Below, one piece after another: positions 3,425-55,495 of a stretch of 64,000 bases of DNA. The translations under genes were made by a program, and so were the position numbers. Under the pieces are notes generated by a model. It ran no database searches. It had not been told where the DNA came from and was given only the letters and a program-made list of their open reading frames with translations. Numbering within the stretch: the first letter of the stretch is position 1; each line of letters starts with the position of its first letter. Source of the DNA: a virus (lineage: Duplodnaviria > Caudoviricetes); the IMG/VR virus record IMGVR_UViG_3300021387_000796, positions 1 to 64,000 of that record, one strand, 5' to 3'.

Positions 3425-4226
3425 TCCGATTAAATATTATGGTGGTAAATCCTACATGACGGATATTATCATTTCTCATTTTCCAAAAGATTATTCTGTT
3501 TATATAGAAGGATTTGGTGGTGGTGCTTCTGTTCTATTTGCAAAAGAACGAGATAAATTGGAAATCTACAATGATTTAGGTGAAAATGTGTATTCTTTGT
3601 TCAAGGTTCTTTCAGACAAGGAACTTTTTGAACAGATGAAAGAAAAGTTGGATTTAACATATTATTCTTCTAATATAAGAAAAGAGTTTATCGAAGATTT
3701 GAAAAGAGATGATTTATCTTTGTTGGATAGAGCATATAAATATTTTTACGTAAATCGTTCAAGTTTTAATGGGATTGGAGGATTTTCGACAACATTACTT
3801 GTTAGAAGAAATATGAGTAAATCAGTTTCAGATTATCTTTCTGCTATAGATGGATTAGCAGAAGTACATAACAGATTAAGTTCTGTAATCATAGAAAACA
3901 GAAATATTTTTGATTTGATTGAAAAATATGACGATAAAAATGTTTTCTTTTATCTTGACCCACCATATGTTCATGATACTAGAAGTAGCGGAACGGAATA
4001 TGAATGTGAAATGTCAGATGAAGAGCATAAAAAATTAATAGATATTATGCTAAATTCAAAAGGAAAGTTTTTGGTTAGTGGTTATGAGCATCCAATTTAT
4101 CAAAAGTTGGTTGATAATGGTTGGAATTTATATAAATATGATTCAGTAAATGCTTGTAATGACAGAACTGAATGCTTATGGTACAATTACAATATTGAAG
4201 AAGGAAATTTGTTTGATGAAATATGA
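3399..4226 (+). CDS. DNA adenine methyltransferase, Dam/D12 class
   Basis: Motifs YYGGKS, EGFGGGASV and YLDPPY. The true start may be the TTG near 3417. Confidence 0.9.
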   Translation: MWEKLNLNSPIKYYGGKSYMTDIIISHFPKDYSVYIEGFGGGASVLFAKERDKLEIYNDLGENVYSLFKVLSDKELFEQMKEKLDLTYYSSNIRKEFIEDLKRDDLSLLDRAYKYFYVNRSSFNGIGGFSTTLLVRRNMSKSVSDYLSAIDGLAEVHNRLSSVIIENRNIFDLIEKYDDKNVFFYLDPPYVHDTRSSGTEYECEMSDEEHKKLIDIMLNSKGKFLVSGYEHPIYQKLVDNGWNLYKYDSVNACNDRTECLWYNYNIEEGNLFDEI

Positions 4227-4385
4227 AGATAAAACTACAAAAGAAGATGAAGAAAATAGAATCATCAGAATTGAAATGACTGCTGAAAATTGGGAAGAAA
4301 ACAAAATGCTTGCCAAGGGAATTGAAATAGATGAACCGCAATATGTAGAATGTGTGATTGATTTGAAAAAAGGAGGAATAAAAAT

Positions 4386-4817
4386 ATGAATGAAGTAAAT
4401 GATGTAAGAAGTTATAACTGCGGAGCATCAGATTACAGTAAACATAAATTTCAATCATGGGATTTTTGGATTTTATTTAGGTTAAATCCTTGGGATGCCG
4501 ATTTGGTAAAAAGAGAATTACGTATTAAAAAAACTGATGGAAGACTTTTAGACTATAAAAAAATGAAACACATTGCACTTGAGCGTATTAGACAGTTTCA
4601 GAATAACGAGAATGTATTTCCTATCGAAAATCTTGAACCAAAAGATATTACTTTAGGTGAAATGCTTGAAGATTATGATTTGACTTCTGATGATGTTGTT
4701 ATTCTGACAAGAATTCTTTATCCGAATGTAAAAGACCGTGTTTCTGATTATGAAGAAATTATTGAAATTTGCAACAAGAGGATTGGAGAGTTGGAAAAGG
4801 AAGAAAAAATAAATTAA
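4386..4817 (+). CDS. DUF3310-like phage protein
   Basis: SYNCGASDYSKH...W..F.LNPWDADLVKR..R.K...DY.K pattern recalled from DUF3310-like phage proteins. Confidence 0.5.
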   Translation: MNEVNDVRSYNCGASDYSKHKFQSWDFWILFRLNPWDADLVKRELRIKKTDGRLLDYKKMKHIALERIRQFQNNENVFPIENLEPKDITLGEMLEDYDLTSDDVVILTRILYPNVKDRVSDYEEIIEICNKRIGELEKEEKIN

Positions 4818-14100: not shown

Positions 14101-14178
14101 TTATAACTATTTATATGTGTAAACATTAACTATTTAAGTTAATACAAAGTCAGCGAAAATGACTTAAAAATTAAAATT

Positions 14179-15507
14179 ATGAATCTGATGAATCGAATGA
14201 TGTCTTATGATAAGACAAAGAATGTAAATCGAAAGTGTGATTGTGAAAAATGTGCAAATGTTAAATTTGAAAATCAAACTGTAGAACATCTACCTTTATC
14301 CGAAGAAGAAATTAATCAAATTATTAAAGAAAGATATTCTAATAAAGATGAAAAGACAAAGAAATTTATTAGAAAAGCATTACGAAAATATGGTGATAGA
14401 TATGATTATTCAAATGTGGTTTATGTAAAAGCAATAGAAAAAGTAGAAATAATTTGTAGAGTTGAAGGTCATAAACCATTTCCTCAAACACCTAATAATC
14501 ATTTGAATGGTAAAGGTTGTAAAAAATGTGCATTTGAAAAAATATCAAAATTGAAGAAATTAACCACCAAAGAATTTATAGAAAAAGCAAATGAAGTTCA
14601 TGGTGATATGTATGATTATTCTAAAGTGGAATATGTGGGTATGAAAACAGAAGTGATTATAATTTGTCCGAAACATGGACCTTTTTCACAAATACCTAGT
14701 AGTCATTTACAAGGTTGTGGATGTAAACAATGTGGTATTGAAAAACAAATTGAAAGTCAAAAATTAAATACGGAAAAATTTATAAAAAAAGCAAATGAAA
14801 AATACGGAGAAGGAACTTATGATTATTCGAAAGTAGAATATATTGATGCTAAAACTGATGTGATTATAATATGCCCAAAACATGGTGAATTTACACAAAC
14901 TCCATCGAATCATTTAAAAGGGGAAAAATGCCGAAGTTGTTCTAATGAAAAATTAGCAAACGAAAGAAGAAAACCGTTAGAAAATTTTATAAATGAGTCA
15001 AATGAAATTCATGGAGAAGGAACTTATGATTATTCTCAAGTAAATTATGTGAATAGTCATACAGAAGTAATTATAATTTGTTCAAAACATGGTAATTTTT
15101 TTCAAAAACCTAGCAAACATTTAATCGGTCAAGGTTGTCCTAAATGTAAGAATAATTATAAAGGAGAAATCGCAGTTAGAAATTTTTTAATAAAAAATAA
15201 AATAGAATTTGAAGAACAGAAAAAATTTAAAAATTGTAAAGATGTATATTCGTTACCTTTTGATTTTTATTTGCCAAAATATAATTTGTGTATAGAATTT
15301 GACGGAATACAACATTTTAAACCAATAAAACGAAGTTATAAAATGACTGATGATGAAATTGAAAAAAATTTCAAATATATTCAAAAACATGACCAAATTA
15401 AAAACGATTACTGTAAAAACAATGGGATTATTCTCATAAGACTTAATAATCTTAAAATGGTCGAAAAGGAATTAACAAAATACTTTCAAGAATACGGAAT
15501 TTTATAG
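14179..15507 (+). CDS. Free-standing endonuclease: four YDYS/CxxHG/GCxxC (DUF723-like) repeats plus C-terminal PD-(D/E)xK/Vsr-like domain
   Basis: Repeats YDYSKVEY..IICPKHG.F.Q.P..HL.G.GC..C and LPFDFYLP.YNLCIEFDG.QHF. Paralog of 54161. Confidence 0.8.
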   Translation: MNLMNRMMSYDKTKNVNRKCDCEKCANVKFENQTVEHLPLSEEEINQIIKERYSNKDEKTKKFIRKALRKYGDRYDYSNVVYVKAIEKVEIICRVEGHKPFPQTPNNHLNGKGCKKCAFEKISKLKKLTTKEFIEKANEVHGDMYDYSKVEYVGMKTEVIIICPKHGPFSQIPSSHLQGCGCKQCGIEKQIESQKLNTEKFIKKANEKYGEGTYDYSKVEYIDAKTDVIIICPKHGEFTQTPSNHLKGEKCRSCSNEKLANERRKPLENFINESNEIHGEGTYDYSQVNYVNSHTEVIIICSKHGNFFQKPSKHLIGQGCPKCKNNYKGEIAVRNFLIKNKIEFEEQKKFKNCKDVYSLPFDFYLPKYNLCIEFDGIQHFKPIKRSYKMTDDEIEKNFKYIQKHDQIKNDYCKNNGIILIRLNNLKMVEKELTKYFQEYGIL

Positions 15508-40068: not shown

Positions 40069-40141
40069 ATTTTTAATTATTTCTCTTTAAATTTATGATT
40101 TTTTACTTGATTAAATATTTAGAATTTATTATATTTAATTG

Positions 40142-40202
40142 TGAGAGGACAGTATGCTACCAACATATTGATTTCATATTCCTTTATGAAATCTAACTCT
40201 TA
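40142..40202 (+). ncRNA. Putative three-way-junction regulatory RNA, copy 3
   Basis: Promoter TTGATT-17-TATATT (40107-40135). Loops CTACCAA and TTCCTT are complementary to leader loop TTGGTAG and SD AAGGAA. Confidence 0.75.
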
Positions 40203-40253
40203 ACTATTTATGTTGTCATTGGTAGTGACATAAAAGTTAAAACATTTAAGGAA

Positions 40254-42335
40254 ATGAAACAAATGACTGAAATCAAAGATAATTTAAAATCGATATCGTG
40301 GATTCGTAAAAATATTAATGTAAAATTAAAAACGTTAAATAAAATAATAAAAATTCTAAATCTCAATCCCACAATTAGAACAAATAAATTTAACGAACAA
40401 ACGGAATATTATGATTTAGATAAAATAAAAGAATTTATAAATTCTCACGATGTTAATCGTATGTATAGTATTTCGCAAATTTCTAAAATAATAGGTGTTG
40501 GTCGTACATCAATAAATACAGTAATAAAATATTTAAATTTAGATAAATTTGAATTTTTATGCGATGAAGAATTGAATAAAATAAAACAATTTTATAAAGA
40601 GCATGAGAATGATTATAGATATTTTTTTCAAAACAAAACAAATCTTGAAAAATACGGTTCGTTGTGTCCGTTGGCAAATAAAGAAATTCAAAAGAAAGCA
40701 GAAGAAACTTGTTTGGAAAAATATGGTGTAAAAAATTATACCAAAACTGAAGAATTTAAAACAAAATTTAAACAAACTTCTTTAGAAAAATATGGTACAG
40801 AATTTCCTATGCAAAACGAAGATGTTAAAGAAAAAGGAAAGCAAACTTCATTAGAACGTTATGGTGTTGAATATGCATCTCAAAGTGAAGATTTTAGAAA
40901 AAGAGTTGAACGAACTAATTTAGAAAAATACAATACAAGATGTTCGCTTCATTCATATGAAGCAGAACAAAAAACTAAAGAAACTAACTTAAAATGTTAT
41001 GGTGTAGAAAATGTTTCACAATCAAATATCATTAAAGAAAAAGTTAAGAATACTAATTTAAAAAATTTCGGAGTTGAACATCCGATTCAAAATGAAAAAA
41101 TCAAAGAAAAGATTAAACAAACCAATCTCAAAAAGTTAGGAGTTGAATATCCTACACAAAATAAAGATATTATGAATAAAGTAAAACAAAGTAATCTTAA
41201 AAAATTTGGTGTAGAATGTTCTTTACAAAATAAAGAAATTAGAGATAAAGTGACACAAACTTATTTGAAAAAATTAGAACTTGCAAAATCTCAAAATTTA
41301 TATTGTGTTAAAGATTTAGCAATTATTTTTAATAAAAGCGAAAGTGCCATTACTATGGATTTGAAGCGTCTAAACATTGATGTTGTCAAATTTGAAAAAG
41401 ATTTTAGGTTGTATGTAAAACAATCTGATTTGAAAATTCTTGAAAATTATTTTATTGATACAGAATGTAGCGGAATATCTTATTCTGAAAAAGAAATAGT
41501 AGAATTTATAAAATCTATTTATTCAGACGAAATTATTGAAAATAGTAGAACTATTATTTCACCAAAAGAATTGGATATTTATATACCTCAAAAGAATTTA
41601 GCAATTGAATATGATGGATTGTATTGGCATGATGAAAATCATGTGGAAAATAAATATCATTTAAATAAAACAAAAGCATGTAATGAAAAAGGGATAGATT
41701 TGATTCATGTTTTTGAAGATGATTGGTTGTACAAAAAAGAAATTGTGAAATCTATGATTTCTAGCCGACTTGGTGTTTATAAAGAAAAGATTTTTGCTCG
41801 TAAATGTCAGATAAAGGAAATTGAAAAAGACCAAGCGAAAATATTTTTTGATGAGAATCATTTACAAGGGTTTGCGTACGGTGATTTGTATTTAGGACTT
41901 ATGTTTAACAATGAACTTGTTCAATGCATCTGTATGAATAAAAAAGGTTGGCATGATGGAAATGTAGAATTAACTCGCATGGCTACAAAATTGAATATTC
42001 AAGTAATTGGAGGATTCAGTAAATTGATGAAACATATTTCCGATTATATTGAATACAAATCAATCACAAGTTATGTGTATAAAGCATGGTTTAATGGAAA
42101 AGGATATATGGAAAGTGGATTCAAAGTAATCAAAGAAAATAATCCTTCTTATTTTTATATTGTAAATGGTAAACGAATTCATAAATCTAATTTTCGAAAA
42201 GACAAGATTAAGAAAATGTTCGAGAGAGGGGGATTAGAATTTTATGATTCAGATAAAACAGAACATGAAATTATGAAGAAAAACAAGATATATAGAATTT
42301 ATGATTGCGGAACTATGAAAGTAATTTACGAATAA
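40254..42335 (+). CDS. Free-standing (Hef-like) endonuclease with about 8 TNLEKYGVE repeats
   Basis: Repeats KQTNLKKYGVEYP.Q, ELDIYIP...LAIEYDGLYWH and C-terminal RIYDCG. The start may be ATG 40263. Confidence 0.8.
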   Translation: MKQMTEIKDNLKSISWIRKNINVKLKTLNKIIKILNLNPTIRTNKFNEQTEYYDLDKIKEFINSHDVNRMYSISQISKIIGVGRTSINTVIKYLNLDKFEFLCDEELNKIKQFYKEHENDYRYFFQNKTNLEKYGSLCPLANKEIQKKAEETCLEKYGVKNYTKTEEFKTKFKQTSLEKYGTEFPMQNEDVKEKGKQTSLERYGVEYASQSEDFRKRVERTNLEKYNTRCSLHSYEAEQKTKETNLKCYGVENVSQSNIIKEKVKNTNLKNFGVEHPIQNEKIKEKIKQTNLKKLGVEYPTQNKDIMNKVKQSNLKKFGVECSLQNKEIRDKVTQTYLKKLELAKSQNLYCVKDLAIIFNKSESAITMDLKRLNIDVVKFEKDFRLYVKQSDLKILENYFIDTECSGISYSEKEIVEFIKSIYSDEIIENSRTIISPKELDIYIPQKNLAIEYDGLYWHDENHVENKYHLNKTKACNEKGIDLIHVFEDDWLYKKEIVKSMISSRLGVYKEKIFARKCQIKEIEKDQAKIFFDENHLQGFAYGDLYLGLMFNNELVQCICMNKKGWHDGNVELTRMATKLNIQVIGGFSKLMKHISDYIEYKSITSYVYKAWFNGKGYMESGFKVIKENNPSYFYIVNGKRIHKSNFRKDKIKKMFERGGLEFYDSDKTEHEIMKKNKIYRIYDCGTMKVIYE

Positions 42336-45096: not shown

Positions 45097-46422
45097 ATAT
45101 CAAATAGTTAAAATTAAATAACTATATTTACAAGCAACCTCTGTTTGTTTTGAAATTCAATTTAATTTCTTGCAAGAATCAATCAAGTTGCTTAATTTTT
45201 TAATAATTTTACTTGACAGATTACATTTAGTTGTGATATATTATGTGTAGGAGGAACGAATCATGATTACTTTAAATTCTTTAACAATTGATTTACTTCG
45301 TATAATTGGTGAAGCAAATAAAATTTGTTCGAATTTATTGACGGAATCATTTCTCAATGAAGATATGAAAGTCGATGTTAAAACTTTTGTATCTTTATTA
45401 AATTCATATAGCAACACTCTTGAAAAAATTTTGGATAATAGAGAATTTTTATCAAATAACGGAATATTGGATAGGTCTTTACATGATGTTTCTATAACCA
45501 AAGAAAAGGCTTTGAAAGCATTGAACGGATTAAACCACATTTGTAATAATTGTAAAGATACAGTAAAACGAAACATCTTAATAAACGCTACAACACATTT
45601 CAAAGAAGTCGTAAATACTTATCTGTTTGCAATTAAAATATATCTTGAAGAAGTATTTCCTAATACAGATGAAAATACTATCTTAAAGAGATATGATTTA
45701 TATGAAATTGAATAGGAGAAAATAAATTATGGCAAGATTTGGATTGGAAAATATTGATAGAGATTTCTTTTGGGAATTAGTCGATGAAGGATATGTTTCT
45801 TATAGTATTATTGACGCTTATCTTTATATGCTTTCACAGAAGTTGAGCAAAGATACGGATATTCACTTTAGAGTAGAGAATGGTTATTTGTATAATGATG
45901 AAATTGGATTCAAGATTCCAACCTCTACAATTACTACTTATGATAATCTGCTGAAAGATATCGAAAAGTTTTTGTCAGAAAATGCTCAAGAGAATGAGTT
46001 TGGTGTAGATACCAATAAACTTGCTAATCAATGGGCATATACATTTTCTCATACAGAAATGTCTCCATACTATGAAGGTGATGGTCATTGGAAAGCATAT
46101 GATGATTATTCACAAAAACGTGTTTGGGAAGCACTATACTTTATGGTTTTTGGAAAATATCATGATAATATGGATTGGGCATTCGATACGGCTAGTGAAT
46201 ATTTAATAAAAGACGGTAATAACTATAATGAAAAATTCCATTTCAAAGGAACGGTTTCTGAATTAGATAATATATCTGTTACATTTGCTAAAAACGGTAA
46301 TATTTCTGTAAAAAATCCAAGTAAAGAATATCTTGAAAAATTGCAATTTTTCTATGATGTTTGCGACCCAAAGAATAAGAATCATGCTAGATAAAATAAA
46401 TTAAATTTGATATTATTATTTT

Positions 46423-46495
46423 GATTGAAAGGAATGATAGGCGGTCAACCTATTGATAGAATATCCTAGTTCTGTCTAACCTTTCAATCTTTTTT
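46423..46495 (+). ncRNA. Orphan three-way-junction RNA, copy 4
   Basis: Closing stem GATTGAAAGG/CCTTTCAATC, loops CGGTCAA and ATCCTA, then a T-run and the same TAACTAT..AACATTAACTATTT spacer. Confidence 0.7.
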
Positions 46496-46957
46496 AACTA
46501 TCTTATATAAACATTAACTATTTATATCAGTATTGCAGATATGATAATTATGTAAAAATTTTAGGTGAATATATTGTAGACCTAAACTTTGATAAATTAT
46601 ATTAATAGGATGGTGAATTATGAATAATTTAGAAATAGCACAAAGTAAATTAAAATATTCAGACCATGAATTTTTTATTAAAGACAATAATGAAGATTTT
46701 AAATATTGGAATCAGTTATATCTTTCTTTGACTCAACTAGATAATTTGGAAGATATTATTTTTACAGTAAGACGTGCTGATTGTGGAGGAGTTATTCAAA
46801 TTGATAAAAACAAACTCTCTATTAGAGTAGATGCTGATAAAGGTAAGTTGCCTTTGTTTTGGATAGAATATGATATAATTAATGATATTATAATTTTCTT
46901 TTAATGAATGGAAATTTTTCAATTTAGTATTGTTTTATTCTTTCCTTTAATGATATA

Positions 46958-47776
46958 TTGAAGGAAAGAATTTTTTATAAATGTAGGAATAATATGGGAA
47001 TTTTAAAACCGTTTTCAGAAGTAAAATGTGATAAATGCGATTCAAATGGATTCATCGTTGGTGAGAGTTCAGCAGTGAAATGTTCATGTAGAATGAAATA
47101 TGAATATGAACTCAAAGCGAGTAATATTCTTTCCAAAAGCGGATTACTTGATGAAAACTCTACTTATGAAGATTTCAAGAAACTGATTGATTTTGATTGG
47201 TCTGATTATCGTGGAAAAGATGAAAACGGAAATCTGAAAAAGTTACAGAAATATGTAGAAGAATTTGATTCAGATAAAAAACCTTTTAAGCATTTACACT
47301 GTTATGTATGGGGTGGGCAAGGTACACAAAAGTCATACACTACAAAAGGTGTTTTGACAAAGTTGGCAATCAAGGGAAAATCAGTTTATTACATTTTCGC
47401 TAAAGATTTGATTTCTTTACTTCATGATTCTGAACGAGATGAAGAATTGAAAAAGAAGTTAGATTACATTAAAAATGTTGATGTTTTGGTAATTGATGAA
47501 TTCGAGGAACAAAGATGTTGTTTATGGCAGAGCGGATACAAGGAACGTTTGCTTATTGTTTGGTTGAAAGAACGTCTTGAAGTTGTCAGAAAGTCAACAT
47601 GGTTTATTTCAAACGATTCTATGGAGGAACAGAAAGAAAGTAAATTTGGAGAATTATTTGGTGACATGCTTGACAGGGAGACGAAATTCGGAAGATTTGA
47701 ATTTAAAGACAAGTATTCAGATTATATCACCAAGGAAGAAATAGAAGAAACCATGAAAAATATTTGGGATGATTAA
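46958..47776 (+). CDS. DnaC/IstB-like ATPase (helicase loader)
   Basis: CxxC..CxC zinc site, WGGQGTQKS Walker A and LVIDE Walker B. Start is likely ATG 46994. Confidence 0.75.
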   Translation: MKERIFYKCRNNMGILKPFSEVKCDKCDSNGFIVGESSAVKCSCRMKYEYELKASNILSKSGLLDENSTYEDFKKLIDFDWSDYRGKDENGNLKKLQKYVEEFDSDKKPFKHLHCYVWGGQGTQKSYTTKGVLTKLAIKGKSVYYIFAKDLISLLHDSERDEELKKKLDYIKNVDVLVIDEFEEQRCCLWQSGYKERLLIVWLKERLEVVRKSTWFISNDSMEEQKESKFGELFGDMLDRETKFGRFEFKDKYSDYITKEEIEETMKNIWDD

Positions 47777-47788
47777 GAGGTTATAAAA

Positions 47789-48458
47789 ATGTCAGATATT
47801 AAATTATATAACGATGATTGTATTAAATTTATGGGGGGGGGTGAAGGATAAATCTATTGATTTTATTTGCACAGACATTCCTTATGATGAAGTTAATCGA
47901 AAATCGCAAGGGTTGAGAAAATTAGATAAAACAAATGCTGATGTTTGTACATTTGATTTAGATGAGTTTTTGATTCAATGTTATAGAGTGTGTAAAGGTA
48001 GCATTTGTATATTTTGTGGAATGAAACAATTTTCAAAAATATATGATTTCTTTTCACAAAAAGAAGGAACTGTTAGATGTATTGTTTGGAAAAAAACGAA
48101 TCCTTCTCCTATGAACGGTCAACATATTTATTTAAGCGGTGCAGAACTTTGTGTTTGGTTTAAGCCTAAAGGTTGGAAAACATTTAATGCATTTTGTAAA
48201 TCAAATGTTTTTGAATATCCTTGTGGTGGAAGTAAAGTACATCCTACACAAAAAAATTTAAAATTGATAACTGAATTAATTGAAAATAATACAAATAAAG
48301 GAGATTTAATTTTGGATACTTGTATGGGAAGTGGAACTTGTGGAATTGCTTGTGCGAATACAAATAGAAACTTTATTGGAGTTGAATTAGACGAAAATTA
48401 TTACAATATTGCTAAGAAACGAATAGAAGAAAGCAATACTAATTTGTTTGATTTGTAA
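47789..48458 (+). CDS. Beta-class DNA methyltransferase frameshifted at a G9 tract (47833-47841)
   Basis: MSDIKLYNDDCIKFM then G9 and a stop. With G8 the frame joins VKDKSIDFICTDIPY...HPTQK...LDTCMGSG. Confidence 0.85.
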
Positions 48459-51438: not shown

Positions 51439-51780
51439 ATGGAATATCTTTTGCAGAACACTAAGGTGTTTGTGATTTTGTACATTGTTTCAATTGTATG
51501 TACAATTATGTTTTCAGAAATTGTGAAAAAGTTCGACAAAAATGATAAACTTAAAGGCTACAAAGTTTGGTTGCCTTTTATCTTTTCTTGCGGATTCTCA
51601 GTAGCACTTAAATTTGTTTTTAAAGTTGATTGGATGCTTATGATTTTCATCGAAGGAAGTATGTTTGGATTTTCTGTATTTGGATATGAAGTTATTTTGA
51701 AGTCTATTAATAAACTTATTTGTAAAGCATCAGAAAAGATTGAAAATATATTTGAAAACATATTTAAAAAATCTGAATAA
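51439..51780 (+). CDS. Holin-like membrane protein
   Basis: Three hydrophobic segments and a basic C-terminus. Confidence 0.5.
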   Translation: MEYLLQNTKVFVILYIVSIVCTIMFSEIVKKFDKNDKLKGYKVWLPFIFSCGFSVALKFVFKVDWMLMIFIEGSMFGFSVFGYEVILKSINKLICKASEKIENIFENIFKKSE

Positions 51781-54160: not shown

Positions 54161-55495
54161 ATGAATTCATTAACTCGAATGATGTCTTACGACAAGGCAA
54201 AAAGTAAAAATCAAGAACAGTGTAATTGTGTAGAATGTGTTTCTGTTGAAAATGCAGAATTAAAAAATCAAACGATTGAATACCCAAAATTATCGGAAGA
54301 AGAAATCGAACAAATTATTAATGAAATATATTCTTATAAAGATGAAAAGACAAAAACTTTTATTAGAAAAGCATTAAGAATTCATGGTAATAGATATGAT
54401 TATTCAAATGCTGTTTATGTGAATACTAAAATAAAAATTGAAATAATTTGTAAAATAAATAATCATAAAAATTTTTTGCAACGACCGAATGACCATTTGA
54501 AAGGTTGTGGATGTAAAGAATGTGCTAAAAAATATTTTGGTGCAAGTAAAAGATTAACATTGGAAGAATTTATAAAAAAATCAAACGAAATACAAGGTGA
54601 AGGGAGATATGATTATTCGAAAGTTGAATATAAAAATACGAATACTAAAGTATGTATAATTTGCAATAATCACGATGAACCTTATGAATTTTGGCAAACT
54701 CCTAGCAATCATTTAAACGGACACGGTTGCCCAAAATGTGCAAGAATTGAAAAATTAACCTTGAAAGAATTTATTGAAAAAGCGAACAGAGTTCATGGTG
54801 TAGGAACTTATGATTATTCTGAATCAAAATATATTAACACAATAACTCCTATTAAAATAATTTGTTTAATTCATGGTGGTTTTTGGCAGACACCCAATGT
54901 TCATTTAGGTGGAAGTGGATGTCCTAAATGTGCAAATGAACTTGTACATGAACGACAAAAATTAACCTTGAAAGAATTTATCGAAAAAGCAAATGAGGTA
55001 CAAGGGATTGGAAGATATGATTATTCAAAAGTAAAATATATAAATGCACATACTAAAGTAATTATAATTTGTCCGAAGCATGGTGAATTTTCTCAATTAC
55101 CTTATGCTCATTTAAAAGGACGAGGATGTATGTTATGTTGTGAAAAATCAAAAGGTGAAACAAAAATTAGAATATTTTTAATTAATAACAACATATCATT
55201 TGAACAAGAAAAACGATTTAAAGAATGTAGAGATAAAAATCCACTACCTTTCGATTTTTATTTACCGCAATATAATTTATGTATTGAATTTGACGGTGAA
55301 CAACATTTCAAACCATTCGCTTTTAATTCTAGGAAAGTAAGTGATGATATAAAATTAGAAAATCTCAAAAAGGTTCAAAAACATGACCAAATGAAAAATG
55401 ATTATTGTAAAAAGAACGGAATTACTCTTTTGAGAATTAACGATATTAGAAAAATTAATAAAATATTGAATGATTATTTTAAGATAAAAAATTAG
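54161..55495 (+). CDS. Free-standing endonuclease, paralog of 14179 (DUF723-like repeats plus PD-(D/E)xK/Vsr-like domain)
   Basis: Same N-terminal RMMSYDK, four YDYS repeats and LPFDFYLP..NLCIEFDGEQHF. Confidence 0.8.
   Translation: MNSLTRMMSYDKAKSKNQEQCNCVECVSVENAELKNQTIEYPKLSEEEIEQIINEIYSYKDEKTKTFIRKALRIHGNRYDYSNAVYVNTKIKIEIICKINNHKNFLQRPNDHLKGCGCKECAKKYFGASKRLTLEEFIKKSNEIQGEGRYDYSKVEYKNTNTKVCIICNNHDEPYEFWQTPSNHLNGHGCPKCARIEKLTLKEFIEKANRVHGVGTYDYSESKYINTITPIKIICLIHGGFWQTPNVHLGGSGCPKCANELVHERQKLTLKEFIEKANEVQGIGRYDYSKVKYINAHTKVIIICPKHGEFSQLPYAHLKGRGCMLCCEKSKGETKIRIFLINNNISFEQEKRFKECRDKNPLPFDFYLPQYNLCIEFDGEQHFKPFAFNSRKVSDDIKLENLKKVQKHDQMKNDYCKKNGITLLRINDIRKINKILNDYFKIKN

Follow-up and report, generated by a model that had tools for sequence, protein, structure and literature searches.

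The window analysed here comprises the opening 64,000 nt of one virus contig, which is 218,066 bp long and has 29% G+C (IMG/VR virus record IMGVR_UViG_3300021387_000796); the runs and assemblies that contain its sequence are ruminant-gut metagenomes. At 46423-46489 on the plus strand lies a three-way-junction RNA, in which a closing stem encloses two hairpins. We found that this RNA belongs to an uncatalogued family of two-loop three-way-junction RNAs of phage nuclease cassettes and that it is an orphan, without a partner in its own genome. New is the finding that ruminant-gut relatives carry, at the same locus, a near-identical RNA together with the exact TTGACCG leader and a nuclease. The value of the locus is chiefly that of a ready-made natural test of action in trans.

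The orphan RNA, its family and its cognate targets

An earlier note, made from the sequence alone, had described the closing stem, both hairpins, an unpaired TAA in the junction and a following T-run, and all of them lie where it had placed them (Table 1). The junction is the minimum-free-energy fold of the RNA (-24.2 kcal/mol; z = -4.2 against dinucleotide shuffles, of which 1 in 200 folds as well) and is retained when the RNA is folded in its 231-nt context. Searches against Rfam gave no meaningful match, either at gathering score over the whole window or at E ≤ 10 on 46350-46650. A scan for tRNA and tmRNA found none, and megablast of the region 45-49 kb against GenBank phages returned no match.

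Three paralogous nuclease genes of 442-525 aa are present in the genome (at 14179, at 54161 and, on the minus strand, at 199298). Their products combine treble-clef zinc-finger repeats with a C-terminal nuclease region, and the PHROGs labels are those of HNH, homing or intron-encoded endonucleases. A fourth nuclease, of a different family, starts at 40254. All four are preceded by the same layout, consisting of a three-way-junction RNA, one or more TTAACTAT boxes, a leader hairpin and a ribosome site; the RNA copies are located at 14.0, 40.1 and 54.0 kb in the window and at 199.4 kb in the genome, and further ones occur in IMG/VR and metagenome relatives. The RNA is followed by a T-run in three of the four nuclease copies (14, 54 and 199 kb), as it is in relatives, with the 40-kb copy lacking it. 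In ten distinct versions collected from the genome and from these relatives, hairpin 1 and the leader hairpin have 7-nt loops that complement each other at all seven positions (7/7); non-cognate combinations of RNA loop and leader loop reach at most 5/7. For loop 2, intact cassettes offer a complementary stretch of 5-10 nt at the Shine-Dalgarno region. An alignment of eight copies has its three helices 96% paired and contains 10 pairs with compensatory two-sided changes, values that no shuffle attains, and slid controls are only 26-52% paired.

From these eight copies, none of which belongs to the orphan's clade, we built a covariance model (R1), and the orphan was its top non-training match genome-wide (25.8 bits, E = 1.4e-3). 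The orphan has the ~70-nt junction of the family and the T-run after the closing stem, followed by the TTAACTAT boxes. Absent from the locus are the complementary leader-hairpin loop and a homing-endonuclease-like gene directly downstream. In a complete cassette, loop 1 of the ~70-nt RNA would pair with the 7-nt loop of the nuclease-leader hairpin in a kissing contact and loop 2 would pair with the Shine-Dalgarno region of the nuclease message; judging from the covariation, the two contacts together most probably keep nuclease translation low. A literature search found no published account of such an RNA ahead of nuclease genes.

The earlier note had also observed that the leader loop to be expected from loop 1, TTGACCG, is missing downstream of the orphan, and indeed the word is not found there. 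Its suggestion that the target nuclease might reside elsewhere in this genome did not hold. The other 8 occurrences of TTGACCG in the 218 kb are about as many as the ~8.6 expected by chance (estimated from base composition); all 8 lie in coding-like stretches, and none forms the loop of a leader-type hairpin before a gene start. No leader in the genome pairs with both orphan loops, and loop 1 is complementary to the leaders of the genome's own four nucleases at no more than 4/7 positions.

Related phages, which the note had named as the other place to look, do contain the target. When contigs of four ruminant-gut runs were compared with 45-48.5 kb of the window, one contig of a sheep-gut run tracked it to 46524 and then continued into AGTTA-TTGACCG-TAACT. 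A metagenome scan for this leader word recovered three contigs (L018, L019 and L020), and two more (L021 and L023) were added via homologs of the 94-aa open reading frame (ORF) that lies downstream of the orphan. All five are placed at the same locus, downstream of a conserved 221-aa ORF where the contig reaches that far. Their RNA, where whole, is identical to the orphan at 66/67 positions with both loops unchanged, and the single differences preserve pairing (A-U to G-U; U-G to U-A). Downstream of the RNA they carry the boxes, the hairpin AGTTA-TTGACCG-TAACT, an AGGAG ribosome site (TATAGGAG) and an intact nuclease ORF, which encodes 310 aa in L018 and 577 aa in L021. These five contigs, together with empty sites that have no RNA, bear out the proposal that a nuclease was lost here and its RNA kept intact. 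The predicted loop duplexes of the orphan RNA with the cognate leader amount to -12.0 and -5.6 kcal/mol, the loop 2 match in the intact cognate cassette being TAGGA. Judged by its sequence, the orphan RNA keeps the full capacity to pair with the cognate nuclease message of related phages. In L008 and L009 the same locus has a nuclease behind a more divergent form of the RNA (78% identity), TTGCTAG/CTAGCAA being the loop pair.

Exact scans of IMG/VR yielded little. A guessed target, AGTCA-TTGACCG-TGACT, gave only chance matches in GC-rich coding-like stretches of unrelated contigs (L014, L015), and apart from the identical contig the RNA word with loop 1 found a single chance match (L017). Scans with the true leader word, with the L028-type RNA word and with a degenerate clade pattern returned nothing new.

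Several observations concern other members of the family. The 5.4-kb contig L021 holds (3506-4785) two complete RNA-nuclease cassettes, one of the TTGACCG type and one with the loop pair TTGCACT/AGTGCAA, which flank the 94-aa, 114-aa and DnaC-like genes. Another contig, from run X6, parts from the window at 46526, after the shared promoter box, and continues as a hairpin GGAAGAAT-CGCCAAA-TTCTTCC; this might represent yet another leader variant, located at the orphan locus or close to it. The leader of the 14-kb nuclease (window 14140-14182; compare L005 1440-1503 and L006) is without a Shine-Dalgarno sequence: relatives that are 94-95% identical carry AAAATTAT-AGGAGATTAAAATTATG, and here only AAAATTATG is present, as if 16 nt had been deleted between AAAATTAT repeats. 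This nuclease may be poorly translated, because the pairing site of loop 2 is gone with the Shine-Dalgarno sequence. The nuclease of a different family, 693 aa long, is preceded at 40107-40253 by a copy in which both loops pair perfectly (CTACCAA/TTGGTAG and TTCCTT/AAGGAA); this copy has a closing stem that abuts the TTAACTATTT box with no T-run between them, and model R1 did not report it at E ≤ 10 with default filters. Beyond the window, at 70021-70332 and 73210-73443 (minus), two shorter stretches match the C-terminal nuclease region of the cassette nucleases with 28-37% identity. A PDB sequence search with the C-terminal domain of the nuclease gave nothing significant.

A mobile cassette, its probable partial deletion and further orphans

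The 221-aa ORF, which has no Pfam or PHROG match, borders a hypervariable gene slot on its left, and in relatives it precedes an empty site, small ORFs or an RNA-nuclease cassette. In the empty-site relatives L047-L053 the sequence passes from this ORF through a perfect 11-bp palindrome to a hairpin and the start of a DnaC-like gene, and no RNA is present. Relatives found via the 221-aa clusters P0007, P0010, P0011, P0012, P0016 and P0019 likewise lack the RNA at this locus and have different small ORFs there. Because the empty-site relatives are without the RNA, the comparison places it in a mobile cassette, whose left junction is the centre of the palindrome, between 46412 and 46413. The palindrome itself, part of the empty-site allele at L047 3272-3373 and also in L048-L053, is AT-only, reads AAATTAAATTT GATA AAATTTAATTT and sits exactly at the insertion point, which makes it a candidate recognition site of the nuclease.

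Within the cassette, the orphan is far closer to its relatives than are the flanks. Compared with L020, the spacer (28/28), the RNA (66/67) and the boxes (33/35) are 94-100% identical and the flanking 221-aa ORF 79%; compared with L019, the RNA is again identical at 66/67 positions and the flanking ORF at 63-69%. This fits a recent transfer followed by deletion, with the cassette moving between diverged backbones. The orphan copy would then be young, and therefore its intactness is no evidence of selection.

A deletion has very probably removed the leader, the nuclease and most of a further small gene, here called gene X, of which the 5′ part is gone, because BLAST homology to the cassettes of L008, L018 and L020 stops at 46524 and the tail of gene X runs from 46531. 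This remnant matches the C-termini encoded in L045, L028 and L030 with 78-79% identity (E = 1e-10 to 1e-12); gene X comprises 109 aa and is whole in L045, and it is frameshifted in L028. In the simplest history, one deletion would have extended from just past the second TTAACTAT box into gene X, so that the cassette promoter would now adjoin the gene X tail and the 94-aa ORF.

The earlier note had taken a hairpin at 46525-46 for a degenerate remnant of the leader. The hairpin exists, but it is not simply a decayed leader: it straddles the deletion junction, because its 3′ half is gene X. We also rejected the whole stretch 46525-46619 as a decayed nuclease leader, since most of it is the gene X tail and the local alignment of 46525-46640 with the cognate leader is of marginal significance, its score being equalled by 53 of 1000 shuffles. 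The word CAGTATTG (46527-34) may retain the 5′ arm and the first loop bases of the lost leader hairpin.

RNA orphans appear to arise readily, as two more independent cases were found. One, in L028-L030, occupies the same locus and has an intact RNA with loop 1 TCGCAAG; its leader hairpin breaks off behind the loop CTAGCAA, where the TTAACTATTT box of the 94-aa ORF follows. Loop 1 of L028 mismatches what its own leader remnant requires at 2/7 positions. The other, at a different locus, is found in L068 (IMGVR_UViG_3300028886_001681, 51443-51515, minus; 85.8 bits; loop 1 TCGTTAC), where the RNA is joined at a TTAACTATTT box to a 198-aa non-nuclease gene. A homolog of this gene in the genome studied here (127501-127911, minus) has no RNA in front of it. 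In both further orphans the junction is at a TTAACTATTT box, in one of them within a truncated leader hairpin.

Table 1. Features of the orphan locus, in window coordinates
Feature	Position	Strand	Evidence or remark
Conserved 221-aa ORF, left flank of the hypervariable gene slot	45729..46394	+	65 homologs
Putative RNA promoter: TAGATA, 17 nt, TATTAT, TG before -10	46388..46416	+	consensus scan
Closing (outer) stem, 10 bp	46423-32 paired with 46480-89	+	sequence, fold
Hairpin 1	46436-41/46449-54, loop CGGTCAA 46442-48	+	
Hairpin 2	46455-62/46469-76, loop ATCCTA 46463-68	+	
Unpaired TAA in junction	46477-79	+	
T-run, six T, directly 3′ of outer stem	46490-46495	+	sequence
Two promoter-like TTAACTAT boxes: AACTAT 46496-501; TTAACTATTT 46514-23	46492..46524	+	final cassette-homologous stretch
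Deletion junction	46525..46530	+	comparison with cognate leader and gene X
Gene X 3′ remnant, 24 codons and stop	46531..46605	+	tblastn
TAGGAT, complementary to loop 2	46606..46611	+	ribosome-binding region of 94-aa ORF
94-aa ORF	46620..46904	+	five homolog clusters, 79-99% identity
Right border of variable slot	46905..46971	+	terminator-like hairpin 46937-71 (terminator scan), border alignment
DnaC/IstB-like gene	46958-47776	+	PHROG DnaC-like helicase loader

The orphan RNA gene looks transcribable: its product folds perfectly, and it is followed by the T-run and preceded by a putative promoter of the extended -10 type. The putative promoter ends 7 nt ahead of the first base of the outer stem, and L008 has TATAAT at the position of its -10. 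The 28-nt spacer between the stop codon of the 221-aa ORF and the RNA is 28/28 identical in L018, L019, L020 and L028. The 10-bp outer stem and its six T, which begin 28 nt past that stop codon, look like an intrinsic terminator serving both the RNA and the upstream 221-aa gene. A simple terminator scan made no call at this stem and T-run, because the stem encloses a junction and not a loop of 3-8 nt.

The T-run and boxes (46490-46524) are 33/35 identical to those of L018 and L020. As the earlier note had recognized, the spacer they form is common to the 14-kb and 54-kb cassettes, with 17 nt identical in the former and 88% identity over 34 nt in the latter; AACATTAACTATTT occurs at just three places in the 218-kb genome, namely in these two cassettes and in the orphan. 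TTAACTAT is found 37 times in the genome, mostly 6-160 nt upstream of ORF starts. The 37 genome-wide copies of TTAACTAT(T/C)T (e.g., window 9230, 11357, 11794, 18311 and 40200) are not above the expectation from base composition. By its placement the motif is probably a phage promoter element, and TTAACTAT is a plausible recombination substrate for the formation of orphans. An AACTAT box is also located 10-20 nt upstream of the RNA genes in most cassettes.

The present role of the orphan RNA

The orphan would be the surviving front end of a mobile cassette made up of RNA gene, terminator, promoter boxes, leader hairpin and homing-endonuclease-like gene. We give slightly better than even chances to the view that the RNA is a young relic, unselected as a trans-acting regulator. 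Such a relic would persist since it is small and recent and since its stem, T-run and boxes would punctuate transcription, setting the 221-aa gene apart from the 94-aa operon. The youth and small size of the copy, a neutral route via the promoter boxes and the drift of loop 1 in the L028 orphan all speak for it. Some observations weigh on the other side. Three independent orphans all have a perfectly folded RNA, which would also fit a selected function in trans, and both loops are exactly retained while cognate nucleases circulate in the same type of habitat, which fits selection too. A pure relic leaves unexplained the 6-nt match of loop 2 to TAGGAT at the new downstream gene, for which the prior is ~2%, and the terminator and promoter roles that the relic would play are themselves putative.

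Selection might have kept the RNA as an anti-homing suppressor that blocks translation of the nuclease of a co-infecting relative, via the TTGACCG loop and the ribosome site, and so would shield the genome from cutting and conversion by that nuclease. Such orphan immunity is possible because the cognate target circulates, yet we consider it rather unlikely. In its favour are the exact cognate target at the same locus in ruminant-gut phage relatives, where the 310- and 577-aa nucleases are intact, and a loop 1 that pairs 7/7 with the cognate leader vs ≤4/7 with the genome's own four leaders. The orphan RNA also retains its own putative promoter and terminator, the orphan allele is known from an IMG/VR contig as well as from two or more studies, and orphans recur (L028-30, L068). 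A precedent for repression in trans is the c4 RNA of phage P1, which acts on Ant protein synthesis (PMC8546580). However, in so young a copy intactness is no sign of selection, and loop 1 of L028 (TCGCAAG), off by 2/7 from its own leader remnant, suggests drift after loss. An exact-word scan of IMG/VR for the L028-type RNA found nothing, the matching leader not being scanned for. Moreover, a cassette remnant at the insertion site may by itself block cleavage, and small size together with recombination at TTAACTATTT boxes would explain retention neutrally. The bolder form of the idea is a selected anti-homing device, in which a phage sheds the selfish nuclease, keeps the barcoded RNA brake and silences the nuclease of its relatives in mixed infection; to this we give a little less credence again. 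If true, the phage would possess an RNA-based immunity to a homing endonuclease, and an arms race of nucleases with such suppressors would have left its mark in the diversified loop barcodes.

The deletion could also have re-purposed the RNA, which would now control the 94-aa ORF: loop 2 (ATCCTA) would pair with the TAGGAT of this ORF's ribosome-binding site. The earlier note had pointed out this match ahead of an ORF without nuclease similarity, and both parts of the statement are correct. TAGGAT sits 9 nt ahead of the ATG, the predicted duplex (-7.5 kcal/mol) is rightly placed and, at 6 nt, at least as long as the loop 2 match of the cognate cassette (TAGGA). Relatives of the 94-aa ORF carry AAGAGGTG at this place, so that its ribosome site departs from theirs exactly at the loop 2 match, and TAGGAT occurs within 25 nt upstream of the start in just 6 of 296 ORFs (2%). 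In spite of this we judge re-purposing to be improbable. As a generic anti-Shine-Dalgarno sequence, loop 2 fits the TAGGA that precedes 16% of ORFs. Loop 1 has no partner in the new transcript, where its best duplex (-6.9 kcal/mol) is equalled by 67% of random windows, and in L028-30, with the same downstream gene, loop 2 mismatches the ribosome site. The match seen here is a single observation.

That the element might be no cassette relic at all is very improbable. A stem and T-run directly after a gene do look like a terminator, and AT-rich spacers fold easily, which would make it either a complex but otherwise ordinary terminator belonging to the 221-aa gene or a set of chance hairpins. The RNA as a native terminator of that gene was nevertheless ruled out, as empty-site and other relatives have the 221-aa gene without the element. 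The 66/67 identity to the RNA of intact cassettes, its detection by the family model and a fold z of -4.2 against shuffles likewise argue against this reading.

The young relic, which we prefer, has consequences of its own. Even as a relic, the locus shows that RNA and nuclease travel as one mobile unit between backbones whose flanking 221-aa genes are only 63-79% identical, and that an RNA fossil, useful in phage annotation, can still be recognized once the nuclease has been lost. A recent leftover could, moreover, still silence the cognate nuclease in a mixed infection. Close relatives provide a matched natural series at this locus (empty site, full cassette and two independent RNA-only alleles), and with the exact cognate pair CGGTCAA/TTGACCG identified, action in trans and the blunting of the nuclease by the RNA-only allele are now directly testable.

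Known systems and neighbouring genes

Homing endonuclease genes are classic natural gene drives, and to our knowledge it is poorly documented how genomes resist or shed them. The c4 RNA of phage P1 confers superinfection immunity; c4 of P1 and P7 has two complementary segments, and a few bases set the specificity between the two phages. It is encoded in the immI operon as a small structured RNA upstream of its target and acts in trans as a base-pairing repressor (PMC8546580), the processed RNA being given as 77 bases (PMC312442, as cited in PMC8546580). Both c4 and the RNA family described here are tandem-encoded small RNAs upstream of their target that repress by base-pairing, in our case as predicted from sequence. 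The two differ in their targets, which are the nuclease leader hairpin loop and the ribosome site here and the ant/icd region for c4. They also differ in form: the RNA here is a three-way junction with its own T-run and a predicted kissing contact, whereas c4 is processed from the operon transcript. The Rfam C4 family (RF01695) had no match at gathering score in the window and none at E ≤ 10 on 46350-46650.

In homing endonuclease genes of the T4 type (I-TevI, I-TevII, I-TevIII, segB and mobE), RNA hairpins sequester the ribosome site (PMC2988022). The likeness is that RNA structure at the ribosome-binding site keeps, or here would keep, the translation of a homing endonuclease low. Unlike those hairpins, which act in cis on the same message and depend on the promoter used, the RNA here is a separate upstream module with a putative sequence-specific second contact, and at the orphan locus this module stands alone. 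A further parallel is offered by orphan antitoxins and anti-addiction modules (reviewed in PMC7354431) and by phage-borne orphan antitoxin-like enzymes (PMC11825919), in which an antidote is kept without its toxin and could neutralise an incoming cognate. Those antidotes are proteins or antisense RNAs against small toxins, whereas the present case is a candidate RNA against the message of a homing-type nuclease. It also differs from type I toxin-antitoxin systems in that the orphan RNA has no toxin or nuclease partner in this genome.

The 94-aa ORF downstream of the orphan has no Pfam or PHROG match, no nuclease similarity and no usable Atlas lead. Its homologs mark it as a small and conserved phage gene. 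It also belongs to the usual contents of the variable slot, because L021 has it downstream of the cognate nuclease, in the order RNA, nuclease, 94-aa ORF, 114-aa ORF and DnaC-like gene. At the right border of the slot, homology resumes at 46913 for L018 and at 46971 for L008. Beyond the DnaC/IstB-like gene, a 214-aa ORF resembling a DNA methyltransferase (PHROG 67) is located at window 47814-48458. It is missing in the collinear L008, where 47776 joins 48468 directly, and a methyltransferase gene is found at the same position in L043, L045 and L047.

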